Part shown: positions 27,664 through 58,069 of the stretch, in pieces
Numbering within the stretch: position 1 is the first letter of the stretch
How the letters are laid out: the number at the start of each line of letters is the position of its first letter
NCBI GenBank assembly: GCA_030704615.1
Contig: CM060734.1
Coordinates: 30,008,001 to 30,072,000, forward strand
DNA length: 64,000 bases
Origin: Takakia lepidozioides
Lineage: Eukaryota; Plantae; Bryophyta
Direction of reading: 5' to 3'
Position numbers and translations under genes: made by a program
Notes under the pieces: model-generated
Told to the model about the DNA's origin: nothing
The model's input: only the letters and a program-made list of their open reading frames with translations
The model's database searches: none

Positions 27664-27684
27664 ACCGTGAGGACACGGCTTTTT

Positions 27685-31213: not shown

Positions 31214-31569
31214 TGTCAAGTTAAATAAGCACAGTGTGAAACTAACTAGAATAAAGCTAGTTATTTGTATTTAACACTTGGATTTAGGTCAAGTGTTAAA
31301 TCAGGTGTCAAGTTTAGTTTGACACCTGAACTGTCTTATCTTCACAAGAGCGTCAGTCGCGCAGCTCATCTCTCTCGAGTTGAGCCTGCGCGACCGAGCT
31401 CCTGCATCGTTTAGGACTGAGTGTGCTTATGATGGGAGTATAGGTTGTTGTGGGGTGGAGTCCCCATAGCTTGGGGTGCCCCTGGCTCGACTTTTGTTTT
31501 AACGAGTGATAGCGATGGATTTCATGTTGTTTCTGGTGTGAACAGTGTGTCTCTTAGCTTGTTCTATCA
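31214..31569 (+). repeat. 5' terminal repeat (Y only; no X upstream or downstream)
   Basis: TGTCAAG...TTCTATCA, near-identical to 57623-57983 and 14308-14663. Confidence 0.95.
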
Positions 31570-31586
31570 CTCGAGAGAGATGAGCT
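31569..31586 (+). promoter_or_regulatory. Self-priming PBS complementary to an internal segment of Y
   Basis: ACTCGAGAGAGATGAGCT is the exact reverse complement of 31363-31380; no TGG-type tRNA PBS present. Confidence 0.8.
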
Positions 31587-33988
31587 CTTATCTGTGAGTG
31601 CAAGGTAGGAGTTGAGGGTTAGCACTTGTATGATTACCTGTGTGAGAGTAGTGCTTAGTTTAAGAAGCTTAAAAAAAAAAAAAAAAACAAAATATGCAGG
31701 TTTCGATCAACGTTGGTTCTGGCATGAGGCCGCCGGGCAGGACGGAGCTACACTGCATGGAAGCAGCCTTCGTTTTGGTCAGTGAGGAGACATCATGGAG
31801 TAGCAGCGATTGGCTGTTGGGAAACTGACCAAGTGCGAGACTTAAAGGGGTACCTGTGATCGAGCAGATGGGTAGAACTTCCGTGCCTGGAGATGGCCGG
31901 GCTGCTCGCCTTAGTTCGATGTGCACAGACCAGAAGCGGTAAGGAAAGGCAGCGGAAGAGCAGGTGGAGCTGGTGTAGTGGAGCCAGTTGAAGGAGGAGC
32001 TGTAAATCCGCCCCCTCCAGTAAATGCAGCGCCAGCAGGTAGAGCACGGCGCAGCGAGCTGGTTGAAGGTGAAGGCCCCGAGAGAGAAAGCCTAGCAGCA
32101 AAGCGATGGAGAACGGGGAGCCCATTGCTGGCATATCATCAACACTGCAAAACCAGGAGTCTCACAAATCTTCATGCTACTTGTGATTGTGGCTGGGAAA
32201 GCTGCTTTCACCTGGTCGATTATCTGCATAAGCAACCAGCTTCCTGACAAAAAGGGTTGTTGGGGGCATTGTTGATTTCGGGGAGTGCAAGGTGCAAAGT
32301 CGTTTTTAAGTGCTTCAGGTTTGTACAAAGCCAAGTAGCTGTTGCTACCTTGCACCTTGGTTCCACCATTTTGAGGTGGAAACTGGTGGAAAGTCGAATG
32401 GTGGTTCACAACCCAGCACACTGCCCGAGTCCAAGTTTGTCACCATATATCTGACACTGCTCCTCCGTCCCGCCAATGGTTCTGATTGTTGAAAGATAAG
32501 TTCTTCCTTTAAGACCAAGTCCTCACAAGTCCTACTGACTTGGTGTAGGATTGTGGCGATACAGGTCAAGGGAGCTCCAGCTCTACTTGTCTCATCATTG
32601 AACACTTCCAACTGATCACTTGCCTCTACTGTCATTTCGGCGTCAAGGGTACTTACTTCTGCACAGGTGCTGGTCCTGGGAGTCTTAGTGCGAGATACCA
32701 CATTCATTTAATTGGTGCAGGAATATGAGCTCTATCAGCTTCTGAACTCCAGACTTTCCTGATTATCCCTTTGTCTGGTGTATGGGATAAACCCGTCTGA
32801 AAACACCAACGATCAGCAAGGTGACCCGAACTGGGCAACAGAGAACTGGGACAACCCAGGTGCAGTTGGTGGCCTTGACCAGACCTCAAGGCCGTACTCA
32901 TCCAACCGGTTAGAGTGGAAGATGGGAGCTGTGATGGTATTCATAGTATTCATGCAGCTGCCTTGGTGGGGACAGTGAATGCGAGACTGGCAGCTCAACT
33001 GGGCATTGGGATCGTAATTCAGTAGCAGGCTGATTGGAGTTAAAGAGGTTTGGTCATGCCAGTGTCCGAGCAGCCAGTGAATCTTGGGTCAGATTTTGAA
33101 GGTATGTTGCATTGCAGTAGGCAGTGTTCTAGGGATTCTGAAACCCCAAGCGAGCAGCATGTGCAGAGCAGTGCACGGGTGAATTGAAGCCAACGCCCTA
33201 CCTTTAGAATTCTATTTGCGATCTGCCAGAGAAAGACAGCCAGCTTTGCAGGATGTTTGATTGAGGGCAGCAGTGCATAGCGAGGCCAGTGATTTGAATG
33301 CCGCTGAAATCTGTCACGGAAATGACCTGATTAGGTTGGGCTGAGCATGTAACCAAGTGTCGGGCAATGGAGGCAACGGCCCTTGCTGGAGGATGCATAT
33401 CCAAGATGCAGGGATGGTCTGGATGATGCTGGCATAACCTGCATTTCCTCTGGCTGCTCCTACAATCTGGTTTATGTGCCCCTGGCACTATAGTGCTGAG
33501 CCCGATCAGATATTTCCGATCTGGTGCTTTCCGGGGTTGCATTGTAAGTGTTCCTGCTTTTGTTGGGAATATTGGTGCAAAGGATTAAGGCTCAGCATAG
33601 CTACGGATCCCGACTGGAGGAGAGCCAGTCACTGGGAACCAGGGAACAAGAAACCAGGGAACAGGGAACCAAGACAAGTATTGAAAATAGAGTTTTCCTT
33701 GTATTTGTTTTGTCTTATATAAAAAAAAAGAAAAAAAGAAAAAGGTGTTATGTTTAAAGAGCCTGGTTGGTCATATCTTTGTCAAATGAGCTCCGTTTGA
33801 CTCAGTTCTTGAGGGGATAGCTGCAGAAAGGGGATATCTACCTATCTAGACCTGGTTTTTGTTTTTGGGACTCTGCTAAAAATCTATGGAATTTTTAGAG
33901 TGTGAGTGTGCCATGAAAGATCCACAATTCTGTTTCTAGAACCTGTTCTGGTCTATATGAGAGACAAATCTGTGGATGTTCTCCTTGT

Positions 33989-34739: not shown

Positions 34740-35258
34740 ATCAGGATTAGATCTTGCTTGGGCGGGCTTCTATTCTTCCCCTCCATCTCTGTACTATTTT
34801 CATTACCTTGTACTCGTAGTTGCCAAAGCCTCTCTTGGTGGAGGCCAGTCAGTCCGGGGTTTTGGGCTGGGATATTCTGCAGGTAAGCACTGCAGATGGA
34901 TTTTGGTGTGGGGGTGTTGATGTTTTGATTTCTTGTGTTTGGATCCCCCCCAACACCTGCATGCTTGACTGTGCGCCATGTTGGTTTTGTGTGGGCGCTT
35001 GCTTTCATAGGGATTAGGCCGGATTTGATCACCAGTCAATCCTAGAGTATGTTGTCGGTGGTGAGGTTGGAGTGATGACCAGCAAGACCACCAGTGTTTC
35101 TTCTATGGTGAGACTGGGTTGATGACCAGCCAACCATAGGAGTTCTTGCGGTGGATGCAGGTGCAGGAGCCCTGAGCCACTGGGATATGACCCTTAAACT
35201 GCAACAAGTGCCTACCCGTGTCACTATTAGAATTAGTAATAGAGCCTTATAGTGTCAC

Positions 35259-36335
35259 GTGGGGGAGGTGCACATTGTGAGTGTCATCACAGAGTTACCC
35301 AGGGGTTCTGAGGGGAGTACGGCTACAGGCAGTAGCAGTGAAAGTAGGTTCACCAGACGAGGTGTTCGTTTTAGACCACCTTCACCTCCACCCTCAACTA
35401 GTGCAGAGTTAGACACAGACTCGGAGGCTTCATCAATAGGTGTGCAATTTCATTCGCCATTGTCGTGGGACGACATGGAGGAGATGTATGGAGCTACCAA
35501 GGGGCCTCGTAGGTACTCTGGAGCTGTGGGCACAATCGAGTTGGATGACTTTATCCAGGAGTTCGACAGCTGGTGTGATTTGCAGCAGATGCGCAATCCA
35601 CAGCTATTCACCCCATTCATGGCGTGGAAGGGACTGTTCCAGCATTTGGAAGGCCCGCCTATGGACGATTACCACGAGTTCAGGCGAGGACATGAAGCAG
35701 AGATTGAGAAGTGGAGGATGTATTGGTTACTTGACTACGTCTCCATTACTCGAGGCACGACGCGACCAGTAGCTGCATCAGTACCAATATCTCCCACTGC
35801 CAGCACTAGTAGTGGAACAAGTAGTGCCGGTACTTCTGCAGGTGGTACCAGTTCAAAAGGTGCTACTACTCCTCCTGCCACGACTACAACAATGCCTAGA
35901 TTCAGCCCGGTGGTGGAGTTCTTCCAGGAGTTGCGGAGGAACTACCAAGGTGTACGGACTTGCAAGACTTCTAGTGCAAACCCAGTGAGAGCCTGCGAGA
36001 GGCGTACACTCGTATGAGGCGCTTGATAAGTGTGACCCAAGGGGTTACTGAAGCTCAGGCAATCCAGTTTTGGTATGGAATTCTGGACAAGGAGCTCAAG
36101 AGAAGGGTGCGAGATGCAACCCTGTTACAAGCAGCCCAACCCACATTAGCAGATGTGTTTCTGCTAGCTGAGCGGATTGAGCTCAACATGGTGGAGGAGC
36201 GAGTTGTTACCATTGGATTTGGCAAGGACATGCCTGCACGAGGCGCAGCTGCCAGCCCACAGGCACAAGGTACTGCCCAACAGCATGGTCAGGGGGGCAA
36301 GGTTTCCCAACCCAAGTTCCATGGAGCTTACAGGG
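35259..36335 (+). pseudogene. gag: Family A gag, 5' part, interrupted by the MULE
   Basis: YSGAVGTIELDDFIQEFDSW..FQHLEG; WYGILDKELKRRVRD..LAERIE; removing the MULE restores HGAYRGPQLQR. Confidence 0.8.
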
Positions 36336-36833
36336 GGGGGCTGCTATTTCATGAGCCATGAGCCATGAGCGGCATAAGCCATGAGCAGAGTCGTAAGTGT
36401 GGAAAAAAACATGAGCAGCACTATTTTCCGGAAATGAGTGTCCGCGGGAATAGGGTTTAGGGTGCCACGGTCATAGGGGGAGAAGGACCTCCCGATGAAG
36501 GAGGTTCGGCAATGTTATTTAGAATTATATATTGAAAGGCAATGTTTCGCGAATGGTAGGGTGGTACTGCTCTGTACAATGGGGGCCCATTTCAGCCTAC
36601 CAGCCATTTGCAAAATTCACCCACACTCCCAATCCCAAACAAAATGAGCAATGACGCATTCTCGGAACAATGGACACAGAATAGAATAAAAAGAGGGCAC
36701 AATGAGGTTTTTATTGATCCACATGAATTGCATTTGAAGCACGTCTACTGTGCTGATTGTGCCCTCAAATCTTGAGCCCTGTGCCTACTGAATACAAGTC
36801 ACGTTGTCAATGGGACTTCGACTGCTCTCAGAA

Positions 36834-37628
36834 CTAGCTCATGAGTCCTGGGGCTCCTCCATGTAAAGTCGATTGCAGCCGTTGTACCGCCCTAGTGATG
36901 TTCACCACAATGTCCTGCCCTTCAATCATACCACCATCGAATATGGAAATCTTCACGTTTTCGTCGTCCACACCAATGCGAATGTCCCCATACAATGGAG
37001 AAGAGGAGCGCACTCCTCGAGGAGAATAGGTCTCTCCGATGGAGTCCACCCACGTCCAGTGGCAGCAGTTCCACCGCAACAGCATAGCAGTGCGCCTTCT
37101 TCTGCATGGGTGACCGTCGTAGCTGGGAAAATCGGAATCGAGGATGCGCAGGAGCCACGGACTCCTCAAACCAAGATCGTCACCCCGCTCGAAGGCGTAG
37201 TGGCCTACGATATACTCAAAAGCCACCAATGTTTCCACAATCGAACCAGTATCTTCTGTGTAATTTGTGTACCAGATAACAATGTCTCCCGATGTGGCCG
37301 AATACATTGCATAATCGATGCCTCCAAAGGGGCAGTCGTCCCGGTTCCGGAAGCACGGCATCCTTGCAAAGGAGGACCTGAGGACGACTTGGATGCCGAT
37401 GACCTTGCGGACAGCTACGAAGCCCTTAGATTTTGGAAATGATACGAAGCGGAAGAGCAGTCCGGCCTCCAATAATGGAGCATCTGGGTCACACGTACCC
37501 ACCGACGGAGGTGGAACGTGTTCATCACGCCAGCGGTGGATGAACCCATACATCTTTCTCATCAACAAGTTATAGTTTGAGATCTGCCACCGAAGTCCAT
37601 CCCCCCGAATGGAAATTCGGCGCCGCAT
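36834..37628 (-). CDS. MULE cargo ORF (264 aa), unknown function; true start uncertain
   Basis: Long complex ORF near the left TIR; no motif recognised. Confidence 0.45.
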   Translation of the reverse strand: MRRRISIRGDGLRWQISNYNLLMRKMYGFIHRWRDEHVPPPSVGTCDPDAPLLEAGLLFRFVSFPKSKGFVAVRKVIGIQVVLRSSFARMPCFRNRDDCPFGGIDYAMYSATSGDIVIWYTNYTEDTGSIVETLVAFEYIVGHYAFERGDDLGLRSPWLLRILDSDFPSYDGHPCRRRRTAMLLRWNCCHWTWVDSIGETYSPRGVRSSSPLYGDIRIGVDDENVKISIFDGGMIEGQDIVVNITRAVQRLQSTLHGGAPGLMS

Positions 37629-38043
37629 TTACATCGAAGAGGGGATGGACTTCGTCGTGTCCAGTGGCTATCGGCCCACCTGGCAGTGACTGCCCATAGT
37701 TTGCATGGCAGGGTAGGAAACTGAAACGGCTACATTCATGCAGCAGCCAATCTTCATCGGTCCAGGATCCTGTAGGGGGGAAATTTAAATGTGCCCTGGA
37801 GTGTTTGTGAGGAATTGCAGCGTTAGCTTGAACTTTTTCCAGCCACCGCGCTGCTCCTCCTCCATCCGGGAGCTGCTGTCATTGAGCGTACTCCGCTACT
37901 CTTTTTCAAGGATGTCGGAATTGGCCCACTGTTTACAATTTGATGTCTCATTTCTACAATGTGTCTGTCCGGATGAATATAGCAGAGTAACCGGTATGTG
38001 AGTCATGTGTCAAGAATATACCAGAGTAACGCCATGTCGGACA

Positions 38044-38780
38044 TCGAAATGCGGCACCGCATTTCGGTGCCGACATGGAAATGCGGCGCCGCATTTCGGT
38101 GCCGACATGGAAATGCGGTGCATCATTTCCGTCCAGGTACACGAAATACCAACACGGGTCTATAAATTGATCAGAAAACGAGGTTGGCATTGCAAATGCG
38201 GCGACGCATTTCCAGCTTGGCAATGGAAACTTCTTTTTGGACAAGGGAATGCGGTGCCGCATTTCCGTACAACACTTCGAAAAGTGTGACATTTCCGACC
38301 AGCGCGATGGAATGCGTTACCGCATTTCCGAGAGAGGGTCTGCAGATGGACAAATTGCGATGTCCGTTCTGGAAATGCGGCGCCGCATTTCCATGTCCGT
38401 CATCGACTTTTTTTTAACAATGGAATGCGTTGCCAATTTTTTGCTGATGGGCCTGCAGTTCGAACAACGACCATCCCCAATACTGAAATGCGGCACCGCA
38501 TTTTCAATCCCGCCATGTCGACCTCCTTGTTCGACCTCGTTGTTCGACCTCTGTAAGCGTGGTGGCATCCATGCAATGAGTGGGAGAGGCCAAAACTGGC
38601 GTGTGGACAAAGGAAATTTTGGAAATGCGGCACCGCATTTCCAATTCAGATTACTTTTTACTATGCCAACATTGAAATGGAAAATTTAGTCCCTCCCCTG
38701 TTTTGGAAATGCGGTGCCGCATTTCGAAAAGAGGTTCTTAGACTTCCCCTGTTTTGGAAATGCGGTGCCCCATTTCCGAT
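38044..38780. repeat. Palindrome array 1: ~11 copies of GGAAATGCGGNNCCGCATTTCC
   Basis: Copies near 38046, 38078, 38193, 38247, 38309, 38370, 38485, 38621, 38705, 38756. Confidence 0.93.
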
Positions 38781-38913
38781 TTTGGGAGCGTCGTGGTTTG
38801 GGCGATTGTGTGGCTGGAATGCACACTGGAGAGGGGTCACGAATGTCGGGCAGAATTTCCTTTATATACTCTGGAAGAGAATTTACATTTACAGAGACTT
38901 CATTAAAATTCTA

Positions 38914-41900
38914 TTAATCTTGAAAATCATCCGAATCCTCATCCTGTTCTAGACTGTCCTGCTCCTCCTCCACCCCCTCAGTGCCTCTCTCATCTCCAGC
39001 GGACTGCTCGTTGGCCAGGCTTTCGAAAATCCCATCTTCCCCTTGCGAAACTGTCCATCTCACCTCCGTTGGGTCGTCTTCCTCCCTGTCTGCGTCGCTC
39101 TCATCCGCTGAATCACATATGTACTTTCGTACCCATCTACCTGTCTGAGCTGCTGCCAACTCTTTCCTTATCCTTCTGTCCTCCCTAGCCCTCTCCAAAA
39201 TCTGCTCTACTTTACTGGGATTCTCACTTCTTCTAATCGCTGTATTTGCGAGTTTAGCTATAACTAGGAAGGGAGTAGTCCCTCACCGGGCTCGTCATGA
39301 AATCGGCCCCGCAAAGAACGGGACATTCTTCCTGGCAGGAAGTGTAGGCCCTACATGTTTCGACCCGGACCCTGCAATCCTGCACATGACAATCATCAAC
39401 GAGACTAATGAGAACCACAGTCGGGAAATTCGTTTGACATAAATGACCCAGAAGGCTTTGCAAACTTACAATGTTTGCACTCACTCGTATTCCGGGTTCT
39501 CCTCCGCATCAATGTCCACTGTGTCTTCCTCGGACTCCGACGAATCCGAGGAGACTTCCGCTCTGTGGGAGCCTTCACATTCCGTTGCAGCCCCTCCAGA
39601 TGGGATCCCCACACGGATGAATCCTCCTCGTAGGCAAAGAGGTGCCGGTCGGAAAACCGCCCAGCCCACATTGAGGCACCTGTTACAATGCCATCCACAC
39701 ATTACCACATGGCGCTTCAGATGTTGCGAACTACATCCTAACGAGAATTTGCAGAACAGCAGAGATCAAGATTCTGCATACCTGTCCCACAGATGAGGTC
39801 GAGCACTGTGCCCTCCACGTCTGTGCATGTCTCCATAATTGTCTGAATGAAGGCAGGGCTCCGAGTCCGTGAGTACCGCAGGGGTTCCGTTGAAGTGAGG
39901 CTATGAGGGAGAAGTTCCTTGGGAACGTTGTTGAACAGAACGTCGTAATCGAGTGGGTCGCAGTTCGGGTCAACCTTTCCTCCCTCCTTCCGGAAAGCAA
40001 AGGTGGAGTTCTCCTTCACAAAGCAGTATGCATCGAACTGCTTCGTCTGCATACACAGGGGGAAAACGATTAGAAACCGAATGCGGCACCGCATTTGAAA
40101 ACACCCAAGCAAATGAAAGGACGAGTGCCAGTGTCGTAATCACCTTCTTCCCTTCCGACCGAAGGCCCAGTGTGTTGATGCACGTCCACTTCTTTTTCAG
40201 AATCGGGACGGCGCTCTTGCGGGTCCACTTCGCAATTCCTGTCTGAGTGTTTTTTCCTCTGCTCGCCAGGACAACCACACAGCCTCTGTCGTCCAACACC
40301 ATGCGGGCAAGCCCGAATCCTTTCTTCCAAAAGTCCTCCGAGTACCTGTTCCAAGATGGCAAAGCTTGCAGTCCTTCCACAGGCTCTCCGTCCGGAATAT
40401 CCAAGATGATCATATCACAAGACCACTCGGTGGCATTTCCGCCCCTCCTACAATCCTTGTCTGCACACACCCTCTCAAAGAACGAGACCATATTCTGAAA
40501 TCCTGGGGTGTCGGTAGGCTCTTCGGCAGTCGCCTTCTTCAGTGCTCTGCCCTTCAGACCCTCCATGGTCTTCAGGTATGCCAACTTGGCTGCCCGTCCA
40601 TCCAAAGCCGCCAAGAAACTCTCATTTACACACTGGACTACAGTTTCGGGAGCCACTTTCGGCCTCTTCATTTCCACCGGCTCGAAAGGGTGCCCCCCTG
40701 GGGGGTTGAAGAGTGCCTTCTTTGCCGAGCCAGTTCTCGTGCCTCTCGTGACAACGGTGGGCACAGGGGAGGCAGCCTGCGTTTGGGGGGGTGGGCTGGT
40801 TGCAAAGTCTCCATCGGAGTCCTCTTCCTCACCCTCTTCCTGAACAGGCTGTTTCTGCTTCTTCGTTTTGGCGGGTGTCACAACAGCTGCTCCTTGTTGG
40901 CGAGTCCTCTTCTTTGACCCCTTCTGTTGGGCCTGCACAGCTGCATCCACCGTCTTTTGTGCCATCTCAGCTGCCTTTCTGGATTCTTCCAGAGCAGCAG
41001 ATTCCTTTGCCGACTTTGGCCCAGCAGGGACACGTCTTTCCTTTCTCTTCTCTTCTGCCAAGGCGTGCAGATCTTTCTCAGACTCGTCAACAATACCGCC
41101 AGACATGTCCAGGTACCACGGGCATCCAACGAGATGCGCGGGATGCCATTGTTTCTGCATCTCGGGTGTGTAGACACAGCTTGGGCCGCCACGGTCGAAG
41201 CCATGAAGAAGGGGGCTCTTGAGCCAGGGCCCCTGTCTGAAGGAGCACGTATTTCATATACCTGCAAGGCAGTCAGCATGCGTGAGCAAAACTTGAGACC
41301 AACCTACTGGCAGAGTGCCACCGAAAACATGAAATGCGAATGCGGTGCCGCATTTCCGAGACAAACCTCGTAACCAGGCTTCACATACAAGGGCAGCTGT
41401 GCTTCACCTGTAAACAATTCGCATTGCAGCTTTCCCCGCTCCCTCCTGATGTGTAAACTCCACGCTCCTTCTTGCTGTCTGTAGCTCTCTGGCGAAAAGG
41501 TGTCCTTGTACGCACATCTGAAACGTGTCACGTAGTCTTCCAATGTCTGCGTTCCATCCCATTTGACGTACAAGCCGAACGAATTTGTGTGCATTACGAC
41601 TTGCTCCTTCGCATTCGACATTACCTGCGATTCCCAAATGCATTGTCACGTAGCAGTTCAGGGAATTCATTTCAGAAAAGCAAATCTGGGGAAGTACCTT
41701 GAATTACCTGGAACCACCAAGTCATGCGGTTGAGCCACTCATCCACTGCAGGGTCGGAAACTTCGAGTGGAAAAGACCACATTGTCCTTATGCTCTCGGA
41801 TGCATTCCAGATCGACAGCCACCGTGTCTGCCATTTCCGATCCAATGTCAGGAGCTGGAAGAGAGTGGCTATTGCTAGGAAGGAACTTCAGTGCATTGAA

Positions 41901-44023
41901 ACCTCACCTTCTCTTTCGCCTCCACACATGCCGTTGAGAGGTGATGCAGTTTCTCCAATTGCATGGTCGGCTGCATGGCCCGAGAATAGTGTTTTGCAAT
42001 CTCGGGGATGAAGTCCTTTCCAAGTGCCGGATCTGCAATTGCCACCAGCTTCACAAGCTTTGACTTGTATTTGGTTCTGGACTTGACACCGGCTTCCTTC
42101 AAGTGCTCAGTCAATGACTGCAACGTTTTGACCTGCCCCTCACTTTCCATGAAGAAGCGTTTGGCATGGGCCAAATCCAGCTTGATGTTTGACTGCCAAC
42201 AAAAACATGCAGAAGCGTTACATTCGATTCATGTGGAAACATTACTGAAATTGGGGAAGGATGAGCAGAGGGAAATTGGAGGACGACTTACTTCGTATAT
42301 CACCTCCACCATTCCATCCATAGTGAGACGATACCATGTCCGGTCTGTTTTTGCAACGGCTTTCTGAATGAGCTCGGGCTCCAGCATTTCCGCAAACATC
42401 TGCGGATCAGTGAGACCAGTTTTCCTCACCCTGTACAGCATGTGTGCCATGTGGGTATGCACGTACGCATTTTAGTGACCCTGCAAGGCACACTCTCCAG
42501 TTCAGTACACGGAAGCACGGAAACAAACCAGAATGGAAACCGAAATGCGGCACCGCATTTCGAACGTGCTAGGGAGGGTATGAGTATCTTACGAGTTGAG
42601 GTCCGCCATGGCATTCTTGAGCAGGGAGGAGTCTGCCGCCTTCACCTTGAGGATGACACACTCCACCATGTAATGCCAGCCAATGTGCTTGGCATGGTTC
42701 TGCTTGATGTACTCCCACCAGGCGAGAAGTCGGTGATTCCCGTCCCACACAAAGAACATTTTACCCGACATATGGCCGAAGTCGGGATCACCCTTCAGCG
42801 TCGCCTCGAATTCGTGGTTGCGAGTGTGCCAGTGGGTATCCCACGTTGACAATTCATCGGCAGTGGGTCCACGAGTTTCGCCGTCCTCATTCTCAATGGA
42901 AACGTAAAACGCTGCCGATCCCAGACGGTACCCTTCTCGAAATGCGAACTTGAGCTTATCCACATCTCCGGGAAGGGCCTGCCTGACGATGGGAAGGGAG
43001 ACCATGCGACAGAGTGGGATTCGAAGAGTCCGCTGGAATACCCTGCTGCCCAGAACTCTGCCAATGCTACTGTGTGTCTCTCCAACATTTTATCCGCTGC
43101 ACTTTTGAAATCCTCCGGAGACATGTCTGTAGGTGCCGGTAGTGGCTGAGCAGCTGGAGCATCCTCAACTGGAGCTGCACTCTGGGGCCTGTCTGCGGGC
43201 AATTCTGCCATTGCAGAGGCCTCCTCCGGGCCTGCTTGCTCATCGGTGGTGAGGTCTTGCTGCGAAAGTTGAGCGGCAGCACCCTCCTCCGGTACCAAAT
43301 CGAGATCAACGGTCGATCCCATTGCCTTCGCTGCAGCAGAGTCGGCCCCAACATCTGCAGGCGGGAAATCCTCCAGGAACTGAGCTTCAGCTCGTGGAAG
43401 CGGTTTTGCGGGAGATTGTTCGCCGTCACCCTGATTGCCTTCTGCTTCCTCATCCTTGTAGGTGAAGGTGTCTGCTGCAATTGAATCTGTCTTCTACCCT
43501 GCTGCTTCATTCGCGTTGGGGGGGTGAATCGGCCTGAGCCGGTTCAGAAGCCAGTAGAGGGACGGGCTGCTTCTTCTTCGACTTTGCTGGAGAAGGGCCC
43601 GACCCCTGCTGGCGATTCTCCATGACCGAAGAACGCGAGTCGATCTCTGGGACTTTGAACTTGCCCTTCGAAGACGCGTCTTTGAATCGCAGTGGGCTAG
43701 GCCCGGCAGGAATACCGCGCTCGGGGATCGGGTGGGTGTACGTGCTGCAGCTAGCTCCTCGGACTCTTCCTGCGGCTCTCGGATTCCTGCGATCCCTCCA
43801 GCACGTCCACCTTCCTGTTAGGCATGCAAACATGTTCTGCATTCAAGTCTCCTAGCATTCAGTCTAAGAATTACAGAAGCAAAATGGGGGGTTCGGTGCT
43901 CGATCAGCTGCGCGCAGCCCGATCGCATGGAGCTCTCACTGGTGGCTGGGTTGCCTGAGTGGCCTGCTGCTCGGAGATGGCAATCTCCTCCTGTAGACGC
44001 ATCTGCTTCCTCCCCTTCGGCAT
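38914..44023 (-). pseudogene. Multi-exon MULE cargo gene: ParB/Srx-like domain + beta-class N4C/N6A methyltransferase-like domain; some frameshifts; outer exons uncertain
   Basis: FFVWDGNHRLLAW (42589-43005); CDMIILDIPDG..GLARMVLDDRGCVVVL (motif IV-VI region); RSPAFIQTIMETCTDVEGTVLDLICGTG spliced to ASMWAGRFSDRHLFAYEED (motifs X-I-II); GT-AG introns. Confidence 0.75.
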
Positions 44024-46147: not shown

Positions 46148-46561
46148 CCACCAGCAATCGAAAGAATCACTCGGGACGGGAAATCTGGAACCTGAATGGG
46201 TTGCATTGTTCCGAAACAACACAATTGCGGCCAGTCTTGATGAGCACAACTTGGTTGTCTGACCGTTTTAACAGCAGTCCTGGCACTTGTCAGTGCGAAC
46301 GTTCCTGTCTGCACCGAGAATACTGCTGGATCCACCCTCAGGAGAAACTGTCAGGAGATGTTATTTCGTCGCCGAATCGGCCATCATTGTCATACTCACT
46401 GGCTATGGAATCAAACCTCCCACCTTCATGCATGTAGCTTGAAACAATACTTTCCACTTCAATGTGCGACTTCCAATCGTCGATGGACTCCGCATGGTGC
46501 CTGTGAGCCTTGGTCTGTCGCTATACTGAACCTCGCACTTGCCAACTCCGTGCGGTGTTCG

Positions 46562-49500
46562 ATGGCTCCGAATTCCTACGCTATAGTTTGCTGTCCTCCG
46601 CAACTTGGGAGAGCCTGGATCCCAAACGAGGGAGGACTTTGCAGAGTGACTGAAACTTACCTTTGTTCCAAATTCAAGCTCAAACCGGGCACAGTTTATT
46701 TGGAAGAAGAAAGGAAGGATGTTCCTGGACAGGTTGACGAGACCATTGTCGTGCTAGGTAACGACGGAGGTTGCGGAATCGAATGGCACGTTCCCCCGTC
46801 AGACACCATCCTGTACCGAGCTGTGGGAATGCCCATTCCCTTTCCGAATCAGTCGCTGCCCACACCATCCACAAAGGAGTCCGGAAACCGACAGGCGGCC
46901 ACTGCCAACAGAGAGGTATGCAACGATAATCATTCCCGACCTGGACCGTCAAGACCCTCCATAGCTTCTCGTGTGGACGTATTCGACATTTCCGACGAGG
47001 AAGATGATTGCATTGAGGTACCCATGTCCTCCACACGGTCGTTCAAATCCGGCATGGACGTCTCTGTAGGTGCTACGCATGTGCCCTCGAGCATAACTCC
47101 AACCCGGTCCATTGTGCAGCTCCTACGACAACATCACCTCGATGGTTCTCGCTCCGAGCTGGCTGCTCTCGACTATGCCAAATTCCCAGTCAGAAAGGTA
47201 ACGTTTCTGCCTCCCGAAGTCGATGGCAATGTCATCTTCGAGTTTCCACCTGTTTCTTCGTCAAAGAAAGCCTCCGGGATGTTAACAGACATGGATCGAA
47301 AGCATGACGGACACCCCTGGTGTGTGACGAAGACCAGTAGCACGAAAATTGCTGATGGTGTTCGTGTACGATATGTCCTCTGTGCGGGGAAGCTGAGGTG
47401 CCTCAATCCCACCTGCTTCCACTTTCTCTCCAAAGGAGGGCGGAGAAACGAGACGGATTGGACTGGCACAACGCATCATCCATTCATTGTCTCCAGCCAA
47501 GCTCCTGCGGGTTCTTTCAAGTGTGCACATTGCAAAGAACCACCGACGTGCATGTCCATGTGCAGAGCCAAGCAATATTACGTAATCCATTTGCTCCCGG
47601 ACTTGACTAGAGCTTGCATACACGTTGGGGTCCACTGCCACCCCTTGGCGAGAGGCAACATGCGTGAGGCTGTGCAGGAAGCACACGACATCATAAAAGA
47701 GGAGGTGAAATTGAGCCCCGGAGCCAGACCAAAGCAGATTCAGCTGAAGGCAGCCCACAAGATTGCTCTTGGCAAAATCATGTCTGAAGATGGTTCCGAC
47801 CGAGAGCCCTTGACCGAAGACGAGATGCGTGACCTCTTGGAGTCCGTCTCGCACGTTTGTAGTCCGAATGTGCGGAATCACATCGTATCTTGCAAGCAGG
47901 AGTTCGGCAGGGGGTCGGACATGTACTCAATCCTGGAGGTGAAACGAATGACTGGATATGACTACATCCAAGGTAGCAGGTTTCCAGGGCAAGGCAGCGA
48001 ATCCGATCGTTGTTACATTTTCAAAATGTCGACGTGTGGGCCTGGGAGTGGAGTCGACTTGGTCACTCGCATGACAACTGGAAACTTGTCGAATGCTTGG
48101 GTGATGTTTGATCACATCAAGCGAATTACAAACCATCAGTGGGTGACTATGGGTGCGCATGTTTATGACTATCACTCCAAGAGGCTCATGACGATTGCAA
48201 TCTGCGAGATGAAAGGGGAGGACACACAGTCCGAGATGCATCTGTGGGAGGGCATAAACGAGCAGATGGCAAGGGCGGGATTGCCAGAGCCCAATTTCAG
48301 GGGATTCATGGCAGACAACGCTCAGGCCAACTGGGCAGCGGTGCGGCGTGTGTACGGTGAGGACCCCAATGTTCCAATGGAGGGGAAAGAGAGATCCTGT
48401 GGATTCCATTGGATGCAGAGTCTATCCCACTACACTACCAAATTTGTTGCTAGCTCATTCCAGGCTGAACACCGTGTCCTTTGTACGGCGTGGAAGGATG
48501 CACCCACATTTGATGACGCGGAGGTTAAGTTTGCTATCATCGAGGCTTGGTGGAACACGTCAGGTGCAGTGGAGACAACCAATCTGGGAGCATTGCACAG
48601 CTGGTTGGGGTGGTGGCATTTTCGGTATCGACAGTTCGGACAGTACATGCGGGAGGTAGGCTGCTGTCATTTCGTTCATTTGTCTTTCTGTTACGGACAT
48701 TTCGATTGGTCCCTCACCATTGTTTGTGTCCTTCTAGGAGCGGTGCTTGGATTCCGACACGGACATGCCGAACACGAATATGGCAGAATCGGTCCACTCC
48801 TCCTGGCGAGCGTCTTCTGCCGCACATCTGGTGGACGTAGTGACGGCCACAACGGAGGACATCGACAGAGCAATCATGCAGCAAGCCACGTACTACAAGT
48901 TCTGAGCGGCAAACAATGGGGCTTTGGGCCGGACAGGGAGGAATTGTTGGTACGAACAGCTTCGAGGTCCAAGAATCCAGTGAAATGGGCGACAGCATTG
49001 CGAGAGAAGATCAAAGGGACGCCTCTGCACCGCAGAGGTGAACACCTAGAGGGGGACGTCCGGACTCGCCCTGTCAGGCGGAGGATTGAAGAGGAACCCG
49101 GGTGCGAAGAGGATTCCTGGAGATCCGACAGGAACATTCGGACAGCACCTCGAGGTCCCGTCATGTTGCCGCACAATGTGTCTTCCAGCAGTGGAAGCCC
49201 AAGAAATTCCAGATCGCCGTCGCCTTCAACCGGGGATTTCGTGCAACAAATTCCCACCGCTCCCTTGCCCCACATTCCGCCCGCTGTTATGCAGTATGGC
49301 CAAGCCATTGTGGAGACGACTGTGTCTGCATCACAGTGGAGAATTGCTCGCACAAAGCCGTCGTTTCGAGGAAGGTGTTCCGCAATTCGTGTGGATACAC
49401 GGCAACGTTGTTTAGAGATGATAAGGAGGAATCCAGATGGGGCTGTCCCTGCTCCTACTTTTACAGGAAGATTTGTCCATGCAAAGTTTGCGGAGGCGAC

Positions 49501-50167
49501 AACCACCCAGTTCTGGTTCTGCAGGCACGACATTATGACTTGCGTGTATGGAAAGCCCAAGTACGGCATACAAACAATGCCAGAGGCTCCCCCGGTGTGG
49601 CCGGTGGAACCAGGCTGCGATCTGAGTCAGGTTGAGGCCGACGCCCTTACCGCCGCAGGATTTCGGATGGTGCAGCGCACTGACGTCCCCAGACAACCAT
49701 TTCCGCTTCCACAGCCTCCACCACCGACCCCTGTGAGAGCAAGAACAATGGGACACGACAGCTCTAAGCATCCTACACACCGTTGGGGGAAACCGAAGAG
49801 GCGGCGACCTCCCTCAAAAGTGAACGAGACAAGGATGGGGAATGCACTTCGGATGAACTGTACAATCCAGAGCTCGACAGAAGTGCCCCCACCAGGATTC
49901 GGGCGTGTGTATCAGATGGCCACGGCGGGCTCAGCTGTTCGCAATGAGGTGTACACCATCACCATTTCAGAATTACCCACCTGCAATTGCACCGACTTCC
50001 AGATCATGGCGAACAAGGGGGCATCATACTGCCCTTGCAAGCATTTGTACTACGTGTACCTAAAGAGACTCCGTTGTAATTCCACAACTCATCACTTCAT
50101 ACATGCACCAGGGTTGAGCCCCCAGGAGGTTCACACTCTTCTGAATATGGATCCAGGGGACCAGTGA
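46562..50167 (+). CDS. Mutator-like transposase: GCM-like Zn domain, MULE DDE core, C-terminal SWIM; intron 48656-48737; apparent 1-nt deletion near 48901
   Basis: HPWCVTKTSS..CAGKLRC..CAHC..HVGVHCHP; VMFDHIKR, FMADNAQA, RSCGFHW, spliced NMAESVH; CNCTDF..PCKH. Confidence 0.88.
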   Translation: MAPNSYAIVCCPPQLGRAWIPNEGGLCRVTETYLCSKFKLKPGTVYLEEERKDVPGQVDETIVVLGNDGGCGIEWHVPPSDTILYRAVGMPIPFPNQSLPTPSTKESGNRQAATANREVCNDNHSRPGPSRPSIASRVDVFDISDEEDDCIEVPMSSTRSFKSGMDVSVGATHVPSSITPTRSIVQLLRQHHLDGSRSELAALDYAKFPVRKVTFLPPEVDGNVIFEFPPVSSSKKASGMLTDMDRKHDGHPWCVTKTSSTKIADGVRVRYVLCAGKLRCLNPTCFHFLSKGGRRNETDWTGTTHHPFIVSSQAPAGSFKCAHCKEPPTCMSMCRAKQYYVIHLLPDLTRACIHVGVHCHPLARGNMREAVQEAHDIIKEEVKLSPGARPKQIQLKAAHKIALGKIMSEDGSDREPLTEDEMRDLLESVSHVCSPNVRNHIVSCKQEFGRGSDMYSILEVKRMTGYDYIQGSRFPGQGSESDRCYIFKMSTCGPGSGVDLVTRMTTGNLSNAWVMFDHIKRITNHQWVTMGAHVYDYHSKRLMTIAICEMKGEDTQSEMHLWEGINEQMARAGLPEPNFRGFMADNAQANWAAVRRVYGEDPNVPMEGKERSCGFHWMQSLSHYTTKFVASSFQAEHRVLCTAWKDAPTFDDAEVKFAIIEAWWNTSGAVETTNLGALHSWLGWWHFRYRQFGQYMREVGCCHFVHLSFCYGHFDWSLTIVCVLLGAVLGFRHGHAEHEYGRIGPLLLASVFCRTSGGRSDGHNGGHRQSNHAASHVLQVLSGKQWGFGPDREELLVRTASRSKNPVKWATALREKIKGTPLHRRGEHLEGDVRTRPVRRRIEEEPGCEEDSWRSDRNIRTAPRGPVMLPHNVSSSSGSPRNSRSPSPSTGDFVQQIPTAPLPHIPPAVMQYGQAIVETTVSASQWRIARTKPSFRGRCSAIRVDTRQRCLEMIRRNPDGAVPAPTFTGRFVHAKFAEATTTQFWFCRHDIMTCVYGKPKYGIQTMPEAPPVWPVEPGCDLSQVEADALTAAGFRMVQRTDVPRQPFPLPQPPPPTPVRARTMGHDSSKHPTHRWGKPKRRRPPSKVNETRMGNALRMNCTIQSSTEVPPPGFGRVYQMATAGSAVRNEVYTITISELPTCNCTDFQIMANKGASYCPCKHLYYVYLKRLRCNSTTHHFIHAPGLSPQEVHTLLNMDPGDQ

Positions 50168-51017
50168 GCTTGGCTTGCGGTCCACATACAATGGTACGCC
50201 CATCCTTTTCGGATAGTAGAACTGTACTGCTGCCAGTACCTCAGACTCTGGCCACAGAAAGGTCCGACATATGTCTTGCCTACCAGTAACCTGTTTTGAT
50301 CGAACTAAGATATTACTATATCGTTCACTTGTTTCCACGTGCATGTATTTTTGTATGTTGGAGGGTTCATGTTTTTCTGCTTTCCGAAAACTTGCTCTCC
50401 TCATTCGACCTCCGACAAGGAAATGCGGCGCCGAATTTCCAAGTATCGTCGTAGGTACCCCCAGAGGCGGCCTTCGCCAACACCAAACCGCTCCGAAATT
50501 TCGCACGTGCGAACCCTAATGCGGCACCCTATTTCCCAGTTCAGTTGCAAACCTTTCCCGCCGAATACCCGAAGAAGACAGAATTGTGAAGTACTGCAGA
50601 CTGTATTGGTGCAGACTCCATTGGTTCAATCGCGGCAAAAGGGTCAGCTTCATTCCAATGTTAAGGCATGTAAAACCGCGGAATACTCTATACAGGCCAG
50701 TATGCGACGTCCTTTTGCAGTGGTATACTGGATTTCCCGTTGCACGGTCACTTATTTCCATGAGCGGATCTAAAAACCATGAGCGGACTTGTTACTGACG
50801 ACATATCTTCGCCGCATTACATGATCTGGAACGTCCAAAAACGGCAAGGTCAAATAAAAAACTATTATTTTAATACTTGTTTAATCTGCCGCATTTCCAA
50901 ATTTGGAGGAGTCCGCTCATGAAATCCGCGTATCTTAGACTTCGGCTCACCGCTCATGCGGCTCATGCGGCTCATGGCTCATGGCTCATGGTTTCTGCTC
51001 ATGAAATAGTAAACCTC

Positions 51018-52895: not shown

Positions 52896-53900
52896 ATGCA
52901 TTTGGACTTGTTGTGGCAGGGATCAGGCATTGGATTGGCTGTAGTGCGCAGGCAGTGTTATGAGTTCGACATTACCTGTATGTGGAGCGGGATGAGACTG
53001 CACGACGTGTTCACTGCGCCGTGTTGCTCAGTTGGTACAGCAGACCCTGATTTGTTGACCAGTGTCTGCAGTTCGTGGATACCAACAAGCCTTGCAGCAG
53101 ACATTTCGTTGTTGGGGGCGCAAGATTTGGAGCAGGTTGGCTCCATTGATCTGGTAGTGGCAGGTTGGCCCTGCCAAGGGCATTCATCAGCCGGGCCATA
53201 GCAATGGATTGCGAAGACTCGATTGACGGTCGGTTTTTTGGGAGGATGATGCGGGTTTGCGACCACTTGCAGCTTCATCAAGCTGTATCTCCAGCATACA
53301 TCTTGGGAGAATGTGCCACTGATGGGTGATTCTCGGGCCAGGTGATGGCCAGGTGCATCAAGTCCGGGCGTTAGGCAGTTGTGTCAGCAGTTGGCTGGAT
53401 TCAGCGATCATGGCTTGGGTCAGCAGTGTTGCTGGATGCAGCTGCAGTGGGGTCACGGGCTCATCGTCCACGACTTTGGTGGACTAACTTGATGCCACCC
53501 GCACTGCTCAAGCGTGCATTTGATGGGGTGCAACGGCCAGCACACCTCACCGTGGATGGCATTTTGGACACATGGAGGCAGTCTCAACGTGTGAGACACG
53601 ATGACCGTTTGCCTTTGGCAGTGGTCAACAGGGTGGGTCAACCACGAGCAGCATTACTACACTGCTCAGTTTCCCAGGATCCCATGCTTTTCGGGATAGT
53701 GGACCTGGCCTCTTGTGGGATGCCACTTGCAACAGTTAGTGGAGCCTAATGCCGACGAGCGAGAGCGGGCTATGGGATTTTCCACTGGGACCACGGCGGT
53801 GCTTCTCTTTCTGAGGCATCACGTCGTCAGGTGTTGGGGCAAGCAATGGATCTCAATTGCTTGACCTGGATTATCAGCTTGGCTATGGCTGAGCAACGTA
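52896..53900 (+). pseudogene. Retrotransposon-borne C5 DNA cytosine methyltransferase (DNMT3-like), frameshifted
   Basis: Ordered motifs: I-like LDLLWQGSGIG; IV IDLVVAGWPCQGHS (WPCQG at 53166-53180); VI PAYIL-ENVP (53307-53318); VIII LDAAAVGSRAHRPRLWWTN; IX EPNADERERAMGF; X RRQVLGQAMDL. Confidence 0.9.
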
Positions 53901-54339
53901 GAGTGCGGAGTGCATTTCCCTTGACAATCTCTCTGCCTACCGAGATGGTACAGGCAGCGAGTGGGGGCGAGCCGGTGAGGACCACGGGGTGTAGACATCC
54001 ATGGCACACGTGGGAGGTACTCGAGGTTCAGAGGGAGTTGGCAGCCAAGGCAGCTGTGATGGATGAGGTTGGGGATTCTTCTCGGATGAGGAGGTTCTCA
54101 ATGATGAGATGATGGGGCAGGATGAGGCCTTGTCATTGACTGAGCAGGAAGGGAGTATTGCTCAAGAGGTTGTAGCATAGCAACCACGGGACGCGTCCTC
54201 TACCTCTAAGCCCACTGGACTTAAGGTTGCAGTTACGGAGGACAATTGGGAGCCTGACATTGGACCCATTGTCACCGGAGGAGAGAGACGACGTATATGG
54301 CGGTTCCTGAGGGCTTACAGGAATTGCTTTGCCTTTAGT

Positions 54340-57275
54340 TTGAAGGACTTGGGAGCACTGAAGGGTCAAGAGATTCGTATTGAGTTGGCCACTGACACGC
54401 CAATCTTTCGGAGACCCTATAGATACAGTGACATGGAGAGGTCTTTGATTCAGATGAGGACTCAAGATTTCTGGGAGGCAGGTTTGGTGGAGCTCTCTGG
54501 TGGAGAGTATGCTTCAGCCACAGTGATGCCAGCCAAGAAGGATGTCTATGGCAATTGGACGGAGAGACGTATGTGCGGTGATTACCGACCTGTAAATCGT
54601 CAGACCAAGTTTGATAGGTATGCCATGCCGACACCAGAGGAGATTTTTGATGCCATTGGGCATTCCAAGGTCTTTAGCACGTTGGATTTACGATCCGGAT
54701 ATCACCAGTTGCCGATCAAGGAGGCGGATAAGCAAAAGACGGCATTTTGGGGGATCAATGAGCATGGGAAGGATTGCCTATACCAGTGGCGGTTCTTACC
54801 ATTTGGGCTTAAAAACGCTCCCGCTGAGTTTCAAAGAGTCATGGACAGGATTCTAGCAGGGGTGGAGTTTGCTCGGTGCTACATAGATGACATCATCATC
54901 TTTAGTGCTACGGTGGAGGAGCATGAGAGACACCTTCAGGGGGTATTTGAGCGCTTGAGGACGCATGGATTGAAGTTACATCCGGGCAAGTGCAAGTTTT
55001 TCCACAACCAGATTGAGTATCTGGATCACATGATATATCCTGGAGGATTGGAGGTACAGCAGACTAAGGTAGAGTCCATTGCACAAGTTCCACGCCCCAC
55101 GGATGTGAGCCGAGTTCGAGCTTTCATGGGGTTAGCAAACTATTACAGACGGTTTGTTAAGGGATTTAGTGCCATTGCAAAGGCTCTAACCAAGCTGACC
55201 AAGGTGGACCAGGAGTGGCAGTGGGAAGATGAGCAAGAACAAGCTTTTCAAGAGCTCAAGGCGAGGTTGACCTCGGCGCCCATCTTGAGACGACCTATCA
55301 GGGGGCGTCCTTTTCAGCTGCATACAAATTGGAGCATGCTGGGGCTTGGAGCGGTGCTCACATAGGTGGATGATGAGGGAAGAGAGTTCGTAGTGGCTTA
55401 TGCTAGCTGCTTGAACAATGCTGCAGAGTCTAAGTATAGCTCATATGAGGGAGAATGCTGAGCTGCAGTGTGGGCCGTGGCACACTTCAGGTGCTATCTA
55501 TACGGCAATCTCTTCACCCTTGTCACGGATCACCAACCACTCAAGTGGTTGATGAAGTCAGACAAGCTTACGGGGAAGCTTGCAAGGTGGGCACTCATCC
55601 TTCAAGAGTATGACTTTCAGGTGGTGCATCGACCGGGTTTGGTCAATCGCAATGCAGATGGGTTGAGTCGCAATCCATGCACGAGCCAGCAGGATGACAC
55701 TGGAGCTCGGTGGCATGGTGAGACGGACGAGGAGATGGTGCCCGGATGGCATGCATCTGCATTTCTGTGTATCTTGGCAGCGGAAGGCCAGGTTGGACCT
55801 GCAATAGGGATGACTGTAGATCAAGTGTCTGAGGACCCTGAGGCCAGCAATGAGCAAGGTGACGCCAAAGATATACATGAGGATTCAGTTGTGTTGGACT
55901 ACCTCCGCACTGGAGACACTGCAGCCGCTGTGATTGCCAAGGAGAGGGATCGGATCCTACAACGAGCCAAGAGGTTCAAGTGGGAGGGGACACACCTGCT
56001 CCGAGTATGGGAGGATGGTCAAGTGAGGATTGTGCCTCACCCAACACAGCGGGCACGGTTAGTGCGGCATGCCCATGAGGAGTTGGGGCATTTTGGGGTG
56101 CGACGCACTCATAGTCTACTGCAGGGGCAGTATTGGTGGCGTGGTATGCACACAGAGGTGCAACAATTTGTGGCTAGGTGCATGGTGTGTGACAGGGTGC
56201 GTGCTTCATTCAACGCCCCTACTCCACAATTGCACCATCTTCCGATCATGGGATTGGGCTACAGGTGGAGTCTTGACTTCGCAGGGCCATTGCCACTGAC
56301 CATGCGTCACAACAAGTACGTGTTGGTGATGGTGGAGCACTTCTCCGAGTGGATTGAGTTGGTTCCATTGCCTGATAAGGCTAGTGAGGGAGCTGCGTAT
56401 GCATTCTTGGATTGTGTGCTTAGCCGATTCGGTGCTCCAGCTGAGGCGCTCACGGACCAAGGGAGAGAGTTCTTGGGGGAGTTTCAGGCTTTGTGTGACA
56501 AGGCCTTGATAGACCACCGCACCACTTCTCGGGATCATCCTGAGGCCGATGGCTTGGCAGAGAGAGTTGTTCAGACAGTAAAGAGGGGTTTGCGCAAGTA
56601 TGACTTGCAGAAGGGACACCTAGGAGATTGGGACCTTCAGTTACCCTGGTTAGCCATGGGCTACAGGTTCAGCAAGCAAGCATCACTTGCCTCCTTCTCA
56701 CCATACTTTCTTCTCTTTGGCCGAGAGCCGGATTTGCCTGCATCCATTTGCAGAGAAGCTGCTGCAGTTTTTAACCTTGACGATCCGGACGTGTGGGCAC
56801 ATGCATGTGAGCAGCGTGCAGAGTTGTTCAAGAAAGTCATGCCCATGGCTTTCGAAAACCTTGCCATCGCACAACACCGTGATACGTTGAGGTATGCTAC
56901 CATACGTGGTGGGGAATATCGTCCTGGGGTTCGGAGATTCAACCCTGGTGACTATGTTTACCTGCAGCAGACTGCTCCTACGACCTTGGATGTGACTGCA
57001 TGACGTGTTATTTTGAGGGTCGAGATGGCATAACTTGGAAGGACCATGTGCGTAATTGTGCGCCATGTCACCTTCCGAATGTCGATGGCAGGATTGACCC
57101 AAACCTGGCAGTGGTATCTGCAGGTTTGAGGTGCATGTTGTGTGGGTCTGCTAGAGGGGCAGCCACCATGCTGGTGTGTGATCGATGCTCTAGAGGTTGG
57201 CATATGGGCTGCTTGACTCCACCTCTTGAGATGGTTCCGGATGGGGATTGATTATGTCCACAATGCATTGGATAG
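54340..57275 (+). pseudogene. pol: Family A pol: RT, RNase H, integrase, PHD finger; stops at 55363 and 57249, deletion near 57003
   Basis: LDLRSGYHQ, LPFGLKNAP, YIDDII; integrase and PHD match copy 1. Confidence 0.95.
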
Positions 57276-57535
57276 TGGGAGTGGATACAACCATGGGAGG
57301 CTAACAAGAAATGCAAGGCCAAGCTACTAGGAGACCTTGAACACACGAGATCCTGGCTCAAGTTCACAGATTGCAAGACGGCGACTAACGATGGGGCTAC
57401 TCTTGTACCCGGCCTCTTGGTCTTTAGAGTTTGAGTACAATAGGGACAGTGATAGAGGACTTAGTACGGTTGTGGCTATTACATCTTGTAGCTATCTGGA
57501 GTTAAAGGGACCTATCCACCAGCTAGGGGGGCGAT

Positions 57536-58069
57536 TGTGGCAGACTACTTTATTGTGCATATATGTGTGGTGTGGTTTGGACAACGATGTAGTTGTGTAG
57601 CGATACGTATGCGCACGACAGTTGTCAAGTTAAATAAGCACAGTGTGAAACTAACTAGAATAAAGCTAGTTATTTGTATTTAACACTTGGATTTAGGTCA
57701 AGTGTTAAATCAGGTGTCAAGTTTAGTTTGACACCTGAACTGTCTTATCTTCACGAGAGCGTCAGTCGCGCCGCGCAGCTCATCTCTCTCAAGTTGAGCC
57801 TGCGCGACCGAGCTCCTGCATCGTTTAGGACTGAGTGTGCTTATGATGGGAGTATAGGTTGTTGTGGGGTGGAGTCCCCATAGCTTGGGGTGCCCCTGGC
57901 TCGACTTCTGTTTTAACGAGTGATAGCGATGGATTTCATGTTGTTTCTGGTGTGAACAGTGTGTCTCTTAGCTTGTTCTATCATTGTGGCAGACTACTTT
58001 ATTGTGCATATATGTGTGGTGTGGTTTGGACAGCGATGTAGTTGTGTAGCAATACGTATGCGCACGACA
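57536..58069 (+). repeat. 3' split terminal repeat: X1 57536-57620, GT (GC in other copies), Y 57623-57983, T, X2 57985-58069
   Basis: 85-bp direct repeats flanking Y; preceded by AGGGGGGCGAT. Confidence 0.95.

Follow-up and report, generated by a model that had tools for sequence, protein, structure and literature searches.

Split direct repeats and an internal palindrome in a Ty3/gypsy lineage of the moss Takakia lepidozioides, with a candidate route of integration through two-LTR circles

Whether circles with two long terminal repeats (2-LTR circles) are true integration precursors has been debated since 1984, and in elements of the PAT/Ngaro type the circle junction is the insertion site. 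The stretch analysed here (the window) comprises 64,000 nucleotides of Takakia lepidozioides (GenBank assembly GCA_030704615.1, contig CM060734.1, positions 30,008,001 to 30,072,000, forward strand), and carries a lineage of Ty3/gypsy retroelements whose terminal repeats are split into two parts, X and Y, in the order Y-internal-X-GC-Y-T-X. DIRS-like repeats (A-coding-B-A-B) combined with Gypsy domains are given in the legend to Fig. 4c for KnitGypsy-Dnmt3 of Klebsormidium nitens (de Mendoza et al. 2018, PMC5890265), a description absent from the first-pass annotation of this stretch, which knew of no such architecture for Ty3/gypsy; the passages of that article consulted, Discussion included, mention no attachment (att) palindrome, duplication, priming mode or mechanism for the element. 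In Gypsy-7a of Chlamydomonas reinhardtii, an active element with 86 new insertions in CC-4532, the left LTR is described as lacking the 8 bp with which the right LTR ends (Craig et al., PMC9940879), and in the accompanying repeat library the same 8 bp also stand between the polypurine tract (PPT) and GC-TG, i.e. X is 8 bp long. A literature search for split termini, proposed along with the first-pass annotation, turned up these two remarks and beyond them no published mechanism for the layout, subscription journals and Repbase lying outside its scope. The layout itself has been noticed in passing before; the internal att site, the end-joining scar, the graded length of X and the mechanism set out below appear to be undescribed.

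There are precedents from biochemistry. The integrase of foamy virus cleaves both strands of an LTR-LTR palindrome that contains CA, leaving 2-nt 5' overhangs (PMC1180852), cleavage of 2-LTR circles has been treated for HIV-1 (PMC1905944, PMC4372172), and DDE enzymes of the IS3 family insert from a minicircle junction, as with the circles of IS2/IS3 (PMC3299598). By our own reading of the Chlamydomonas library (PMC9940879), 14 of the first 24 numbered Gypsy families have CA-GC-TG after the PPT (Gypsy 2, 3, 5-11, 14, 18, 21, 22 and 24), seven are ordinary and three unclear. Entries that are split in this library do not show left ends; four whole-element entries (Gypsy-14a/b, 18 and 22) run from the start of Y to the end of X.

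Self-comparison of the window, together with inspection of the sequence, showed that three subfamilies of the lineage end PPT-X-GC-Y-T-X, confirming all coordinates first proposed for these copies. The repeats and the features that bound them are as follows (window positions).

363..2926, forward strand: copy 1, 3' part, with an open integrase-PHD frame (363-1991) followed by the PPT
X 2251-2426, GC, Y 2429-2749, T, X 2751-2926, forward strand: repeats of copy 1
5942..6927, reverse strand: copy 2, truncated 3' part, with the PHD finger (6927-6733) followed by the PPT
X 6466-6382, GC, Y 6379-6028, T, X 6026-5942, reverse strand: repeats of copy 2
31214..31569, forward strand: Y1, the 5' repeat of the main copy, with TG at the host junction and no X ahead
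57525..57534, forward strand: PPT of the main copy, AGGGGGGCGA
57536..57620, forward strand: X1 of the main copy, 85 bp, preceded by T 57535
57617..57626, forward strand: internal att palindrome of the main copy, GACA-GC-TGTC, with C to T at 57622, the spacer reading GT
57623..57983, forward strand: Y2 of the main copy
57984..58069, forward strand: T plus X2 of the main copy (X2 57985-58069), with CA at the host junction

Both 5' ends visible in the window consist of Y alone, and a fourth PPT-X-GC-Y sits within a rearranged remnant (14056-14956). The palindrome at the X/Y junction, GACAGCTGTC, is exact at 2423, 6376 and 14302, as had been noted, against a chance expectation of 0.05 in 64 kb; C is the majority letter at 57622 in contigs from two runs of the same organism, so that T at this position is a private mutation. 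Within one copy X1 and X2 are 96.5-97.7% identical and Y1 and Y2 99.2% identical over aligned columns. Between the window subfamilies identity falls to 77-82% for X and 70-75% for Y, and the earlier observation that the palindrome stays constant amid this divergence was upheld. The X/Y spacer is 2 nt at 26 of 26 junctions, with changes nearly only of the C-T/G-A type, the junctions being located by best match to a 14-mer, a procedure that favours conservation. In the relatives of family B the PPT-side end reads ATACATG and the PBS-side end (at the primer-binding site, PBS) TTCAAT, and TG/CA occurs at the internal site only. The integrated ends are the two halves of a conserved internal CA/GC/TG palindrome in the LTR. 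By its proteins the lineage is Ty3/gypsy, and it has the PBS, PPT, TG...CA ends and a duplication within the 4-6 bp range of that group; it is without two full LTRs, and the layout is lineage-wide.

The target duplications at these ends were traced through a second insertion.

31210..31213, forward strand: 4-bp target duplication TCCC, partner at 14052-14055
58070..58073, forward strand: 4-bp target duplication CACA, partner at 14957-14960
14056..14956, no single strand: rearranged remnant, second insertion of the main-copy subfamily, flanked by GGGA (14052-14055) and TGTG (14957-14960)
Parts of the remnant: X2 14056-14140 (reverse), filler, internal end-PPT-X-GC-Y 14148-14663 (forward), Y1 14658-14956 (reverse)

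The span 31214..58069 had been taken as one element, and this was rejected, since TCCC at one end and CACA at the other are not the same duplication; these ends belong to two insertions joined by an inversion. The outer ends of the remnant supply the crosswise match: its Y, at 14956, has CACA ahead of it, and its X, at 14056, has TCCC behind it. Two opposite-facing insertions would each have made a 4-bp duplication, and the duplications now lie crosswise, with partners exchanged, because the 16 kb between the insertions (14957-31213) was probably inverted later. A contig from run X5 tracks the window to 31214 and then enters the flank beyond 14055 with a single TCCC; since that flank is itself repeated, this empty site may be a paralogous empty copy instead of an allele, and in either case it fixes the duplication length at 4 bp. 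When the window Y copies were compared for shared variants that might pair them with the original insertions, every difference was private and no pairing emerged. The host sequence on either side of the CACA site is one repeat unit, and the flank 30900-31213 is multicopy in run X1.

Relatives were collected as 80 loci by a scan of metagenome contigs (44-80% integrase identity; short-read assemblies), most of them from few assemblies sharing insertions and probably representing one or few hosts. A terminal X could be scored in 41 of the 80, which represent 34 insertions. In the remaining 39 the sequence breaks off too early, has suffered a deletion, or comes from a family for which there are no reference repeats; in five of these (L003, L053, L055, L059, L076) PPT-X-palindrome is still visible. 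Among the 34 distinct 3' ends, 19 read X-Y-X, 14 have X alone and one is deleted. Ten elements have both ends (eight from the loci and the two window insertions), and seven of these carry exact 4-bp duplications at the start of Y and the end of X. Three of the eight loci have the form Y...XYX, with duplications AAGG and ACAA exact and GCAT/ACAT (L017, L054, L071), and five the form Y...X, with three exact duplications, one matched at three of four positions and one absent (L008, L014, L021, L030, L072). X ahead of Y was found at none of 10 distinct 5' ends in the loci (two of them truncated), and none of the ten two-ended elements has a pair of complete, identical LTRs extending between the PPT and PBS boundaries. 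Contigs of the runs are too short to reach across X, so that neither a Y-X-GC-Y circle junction nor an XY 5' end could appear in them.

The possibility that ordinary LTR elements were rearranged after insertion, or misassembled, derives some plausibility from the inversion and remnant at the window locus and from the short-read origin of the loci. It is nevertheless refuted by duplications located at the permuted ends, and it has a negligible chance of being correct: the layout recurs in three window subfamilies, in three further families at 52-77% integrase identity and in hand-curated Chlamydomonas entries, with no ordinary XY 5' end. Named relatives come from liverworts, one moss, Klebsormidium and volvocine algae and, together with the DYW-type remnants described below, suggest that the host is probably a land plant without seeds; a search of viral contigs gave 41 pattern matches, no relative among them. 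Two loci show further forms. In L034, GC follows X before host DNA, as in the Chlamydomonas Gypsy-18 entry, which is possibly a retained 2-nt overhang or a chance duplication start; in L026 a single Y-X piece, either a solo form or a truncated copy, faces the other way and lies on the reverse strand, ~2300-2600 bp upstream of where the integrase match ends.

The ends of the cDNA were predicted from the priming site.

31570..31586, forward strand: self-priming PBS, 17 nt, directly after Y1
31363..31379, forward strand: predicted self-primer (RNA 5' end), exact complement of the PBS

Priming by tRNA was rejected, the PBS being a 17-nt complement of 31363-31379. Pairing of 17 nt was reached in 0 of 500 shuffles (fold z -5.4). 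The complement measures 17 nt in the window, 16 in L017, 12 in L071, 11 in L008 and 10 in L072; two other families preserve the pairing although their letters differ (16 and 12 nt), and in four of nine decayed copies it is at chance level or weak. This pattern suggests a Tf1-like self-primer that would place the RNA start inside Y. From a self-priming PBS and ordinary reverse transcription it follows that the cDNA LTR should be tX-gc-Y.

The origin of the terminal X2 was addressed by a two-copy variant test, used in place of nearest-neighbour identity to the element's own X1, which is weak. Substitutions present in two copies were common to X1 and X2 of one element in 14 of 29 and 5 of 11 cases, where 5% and 11% were expected, and X2 evidently derives from X1 of the same element. 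This bears on replication of the PAT/Ngaro kind, in which X2 and the Y/X joint would be inherited via the RNA and an own or borrowed recombinase would insert the circle. The A1-B1-A2-B2 layout is identical (PMC4157794), as first proposed; the private variants common to X2 and its own X1 are at odds with such inheritance, and priming at the PBS, by the established mechanism of reverse transcription, cannot copy RNA 3' of Y2. No tyrosine recombinase was found in 39 open reading frames (ORFs) of the full-length relatives L017 and L071, nor in 18 read-through frames of the window element (minus strand of 35253-36350 excepted; copies decayed). The H2C2/rve integrase has its D-D35-E triad intact (D197, D257 and E292 in frame 363-1991), its best solved relative is Ty3 integrase (E 7e-33), and the TG/CA ends and 4-bp duplications agree with a DDE enzyme, as had also been stated. 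Membership in PAT/Ngaro was accordingly rejected, the split repeats being present and the tyrosine recombinase absent, and replication of that kind is largely refuted already and very improbable. The two outcomes named beforehand as fatal to the circle proposal, ordinary XY...XY ends and an encoded tyrosine recombinase, were both absent.

The joint between Y2 and X2 consists of Y's PBS boundary and the first base after the PPT. The T in it is the base that follows the PPT before X1 (GCGA-T-TGTGG), so that the predicted cDNA ends meet flush at the joint, and the earlier view of TATCA-T-TGTG as containing an added scar base was rejected. All three window joints are flush; in family B five of 12 are flush and seven are trimmed or retain 1-2 nt of the PBS, and one joint in family A retains PPT bases. 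The joint thus looks like an end-joining scar of cDNA ends.

The reading to which we assign most weight, with a probability of roughly 60%, is that the DDE integrase opens an end-joined 2-LTR circle at the PBS-side palindrome, each strand being cut behind its CA. The RNA would start ~150 nt into Y1 and prime itself, and ordinary reverse transcription would produce tX-gc-Y...tX-gc-Y; joining of the two blunt cDNA ends would then yield Y-t-X, the scar seen in the genome. At the PBS-side CA/GC/TG, integrase would nick each strand behind its CA, which would produce recessed CA-3'OH ends and 2-nt GC overhangs, and insertion would give the product that is seen, Y-internal-X-gc-Y-t-X with a 4-bp duplication, in which the promoter, R and an intact att palindrome would be restored for the next round. 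Copies of the form Y-internal-X, left out of the circle model as first drawn, may be 1-LTR circles cut at their sole site, products of double cutting or later X-X deletions, and would have no further round open to them. The route would probably be of advantage in freeing integration from the need for precise cDNA ends. The circle-cutting reading is supported by duplications at the start of Y and the end of X and by an att site that is internal and not at the cDNA ends; the origin of X2 from X1, the intact DD35E triad and the joint also agree with the model as first drawn. Moreover, an X of 8 bp, as in Chlamydomonas Gypsy-7a, seems too short to act as a lone att end, which favours joining before cutting.

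The sequences are compatible alike with this order and with cutting first and joining later. Under the latter, integrase would cut linear cDNA at the palindrome of the left LTR and insert both new ends, no free circle being formed, and the host would repair the original cDNA ends (Y and tX) as it would any break in a chromosome, giving the same product. Every sequence feature is accounted for in this way, the variable Y/X joint included; large insertions between Y2 and X2 (Chlamydomonas Gypsy-14a) fit, the rearranged remnant 14056-14956 is perhaps explained, and cutting of both sites of a linear molecule would yield Y...X directly. The cost is that a duplex of 8 bp (Gypsy-7a), or 5-8 bp, must act as a whole att end, and that each insertion would risk a double-strand break, yet most joints lose <10 bp; this order of events is a possible but distinctly less favoured one. 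Doubtful, and less probable again, is a jump of reverse transcriptase from the right cDNA end to the left end, with integrase trimming the extended linear or nicked molecule at the new palindrome and no host ligase involved. Such a jump would explain the sole use of the site beside the joint, and flush joints and a 2-nt microhomology joint (L047) are compatible with template jumping; only one strand of X2 would be made at first, and losses on both sides of a joint (L071) resemble end joining more.

Several points weigh against the cutting of a 2-LTR circle. The reading is drawn from integrated, decayed copies, with no circle or cleavage observed, and retroviral 2-LTR circles are mostly described as dead ends in the literature consulted. 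The circle would have two identical sites of which only the PBS-side one seems to be used; as a guess, integrase may be loaded close to where the cDNA ends, at a distance of ~85-190 bp from this site. The alternative product Y-X-Y...X, which the circle model had predicted, occurs in none of the ten two-ended elements. One element lacks a target duplication (L030) and two match at three of four positions (L008, L071). X stands alone at 14 of the 34 distinct 3' ends, so either the cycle is leaky or copies decay, and L053 has PPT-X-palindrome-Y, yet X2 is absent from 10 kb downstream. By plain identity an element's own X1 is nearest for six of 10 X2 copies in family B and for none of five in family A, and variants common to X1 and X2 could also arise by gene conversion, the repeats lying 300-400 bp from each other.

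At slightly better than even odds, the lineage represents a broad green-lineage branch of Ty3/gypsy (chlorophyte algae, Klebsormidium and bryophytes) in which the integrase att site has shifted from the cDNA ends into the LTR and the end-joined 2-LTR circle has become the obligate substrate of integration. In no earlier natural case would the Panganiban-Temin route have been the normal one; the graded X (5-8 to ~190 bp) would record its evolution, with convergence on the split-repeat layout of tyrosine-recombinase elements. Cleavage of an internal junction seems to be central to the whole lineage; the likely route, closure into a circle that integrase then reopens, has long been taken to lead nowhere in elements of this kind. 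Gypsy-7a, with the layout in miniature and active in a model organism, makes the question directly testable. The elements show a DDE integrase supporting a split-repeat layout thought typical of tyrosine-recombinase elements, and so offer a path between the two designs. LTR finders need two full LTRs, so that elements of this kind are misannotated or missed in algae and bryophytes.

The main element spans ~12.2 kb once a nested transposon of ~14.7 kb is removed, with Pol in the order reverse transcriptase, RNase H, integrase.

35253..36326, forward strand: putative broken gag-like region, assigned by position, no Pfam match, interrupted by the nested transposon
36337..51016, no strand assigned: nested DNA transposon, Mutator-like, bounded by terminal inverted repeats and by a 10-bp duplication, CTTACAGGGG, foreign to the retroelement
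53100..53330, forward strand: decayed C5 cytosine methyltransferase domain with GWPCQGHS and WENVP motifs, between protease and reverse transcriptase
54181..55760, forward strand: reverse transcriptase and RNase H, stop-broken
55685..57272, forward strand: integrase (H2C2, DD35E) with C-terminal PHD finger, one stop and one frameshift

No chromodomain follows the integrase, frame 363-1991 stopping directly past the PHD finger. The window methyltransferase matches PF00145 at E 0.007, under the Pfam cut-off; the domain is found in relative L017 (5627-6094) at E 4e-4 and in 12 of 120 longer relatives. A decayed methyltransferase in Pol extends the Klebsormidium finding to land plants, and the att site contains CG. 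Between PBS and gag lies a 3.7-kb leader (31570-35250) whose minus strand has a fragment resembling the zf-RVT of long interspersed elements (E 3e-4); the leader also includes a 212-aa frame (33917-34555) of no evident function. The nested transposon (36337-51016) carries internal arrays of GAAATGCGGYGCCGCATTTC-type palindromes; it and ~7000-11200 are two large, related DNA transposons in which a putative Mutator-like DDE signature, together with a putative SWIM-like finger and GCM-like motif, can be recognised, and a Pfam scan of the two gave no match. A second, ordinary-looking Gypsy family occupies 15266-28810, 11453-13679 and 59166-62930, with ~1.1-kb LTRs (15266-16403 and 27702-28810, 97% alike) containing CACAGC-type repeats and with a long extra ORF (22892-26971) without Pfam match. 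Decayed pentatricopeptide repeats lie at 28934-30900 and 58210-59017, with a DYW-type end at ~30840-30895.

Compared with described systems, the window element has in common with KnitGypsy-Dnmt3, as far as that element is described, the A-coding-B-A-B repeats, a Gypsy Pol and a cytosine methyltransferase within Pol, and differs in its land-plant host and in the decay of the methyltransferase; proteins of K. nitens are 55-56% identical to the window integrase-PHD and are not tied to the named KnitGypsy elements. As represented in the Chlamydomonas library, Gypsy-6 and 14 agree with the window copies in their integrase motifs and PHD finger, and Gypsy-6 self-primes, whereas Gypsy-7a, 8 and 9 differ in an X of 5-8 bp and a tRNA-type PBS, Gypsy-7a also in a PHD finger ahead of the integrase and in being active. 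The Tf1/sushi and Tcn1 chromoviruses likewise have a PBS complementary to the LTR and not to a tRNA (PMC6317226), but combine ordinary full LTRs with a chromodomain, where the window copies have a PHD finger and no chromodomain, and membership in Tcn1 was rejected on this ground. PAT, TOC1, Kangaroo, Ngaro and VIPER, in the account consulted, have the same split direct repeats A1-B1-A2-B2 (PMC4157794) and use a tyrosine recombinase, in contrast to the DD35E integrase, PPT, PBS, TG/CA ends and 4-bp duplications found here. In copy-out paste-in transposition of IS3, IS30, IS21 and IS256, as in the route proposed here, the substrate that the DDE enzyme inserts is a circle in which the two ends abut; those elements are DNA-only and their transposase makes the junction, whereas here reverse transcriptase would copy the junction and another process would make the circle. 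Cleavage of retroviral 2-LTR circles, as reported in the papers cited above, resembles the proposed step most directly, an integrase cutting a CA-centred palindrome on both strands to give processed ends; there the palindrome is the LTR-LTR junction, the provirus is ordinary and the reaction a side path, whereas here the site lies inside the LTR and its use is seemingly the rule.

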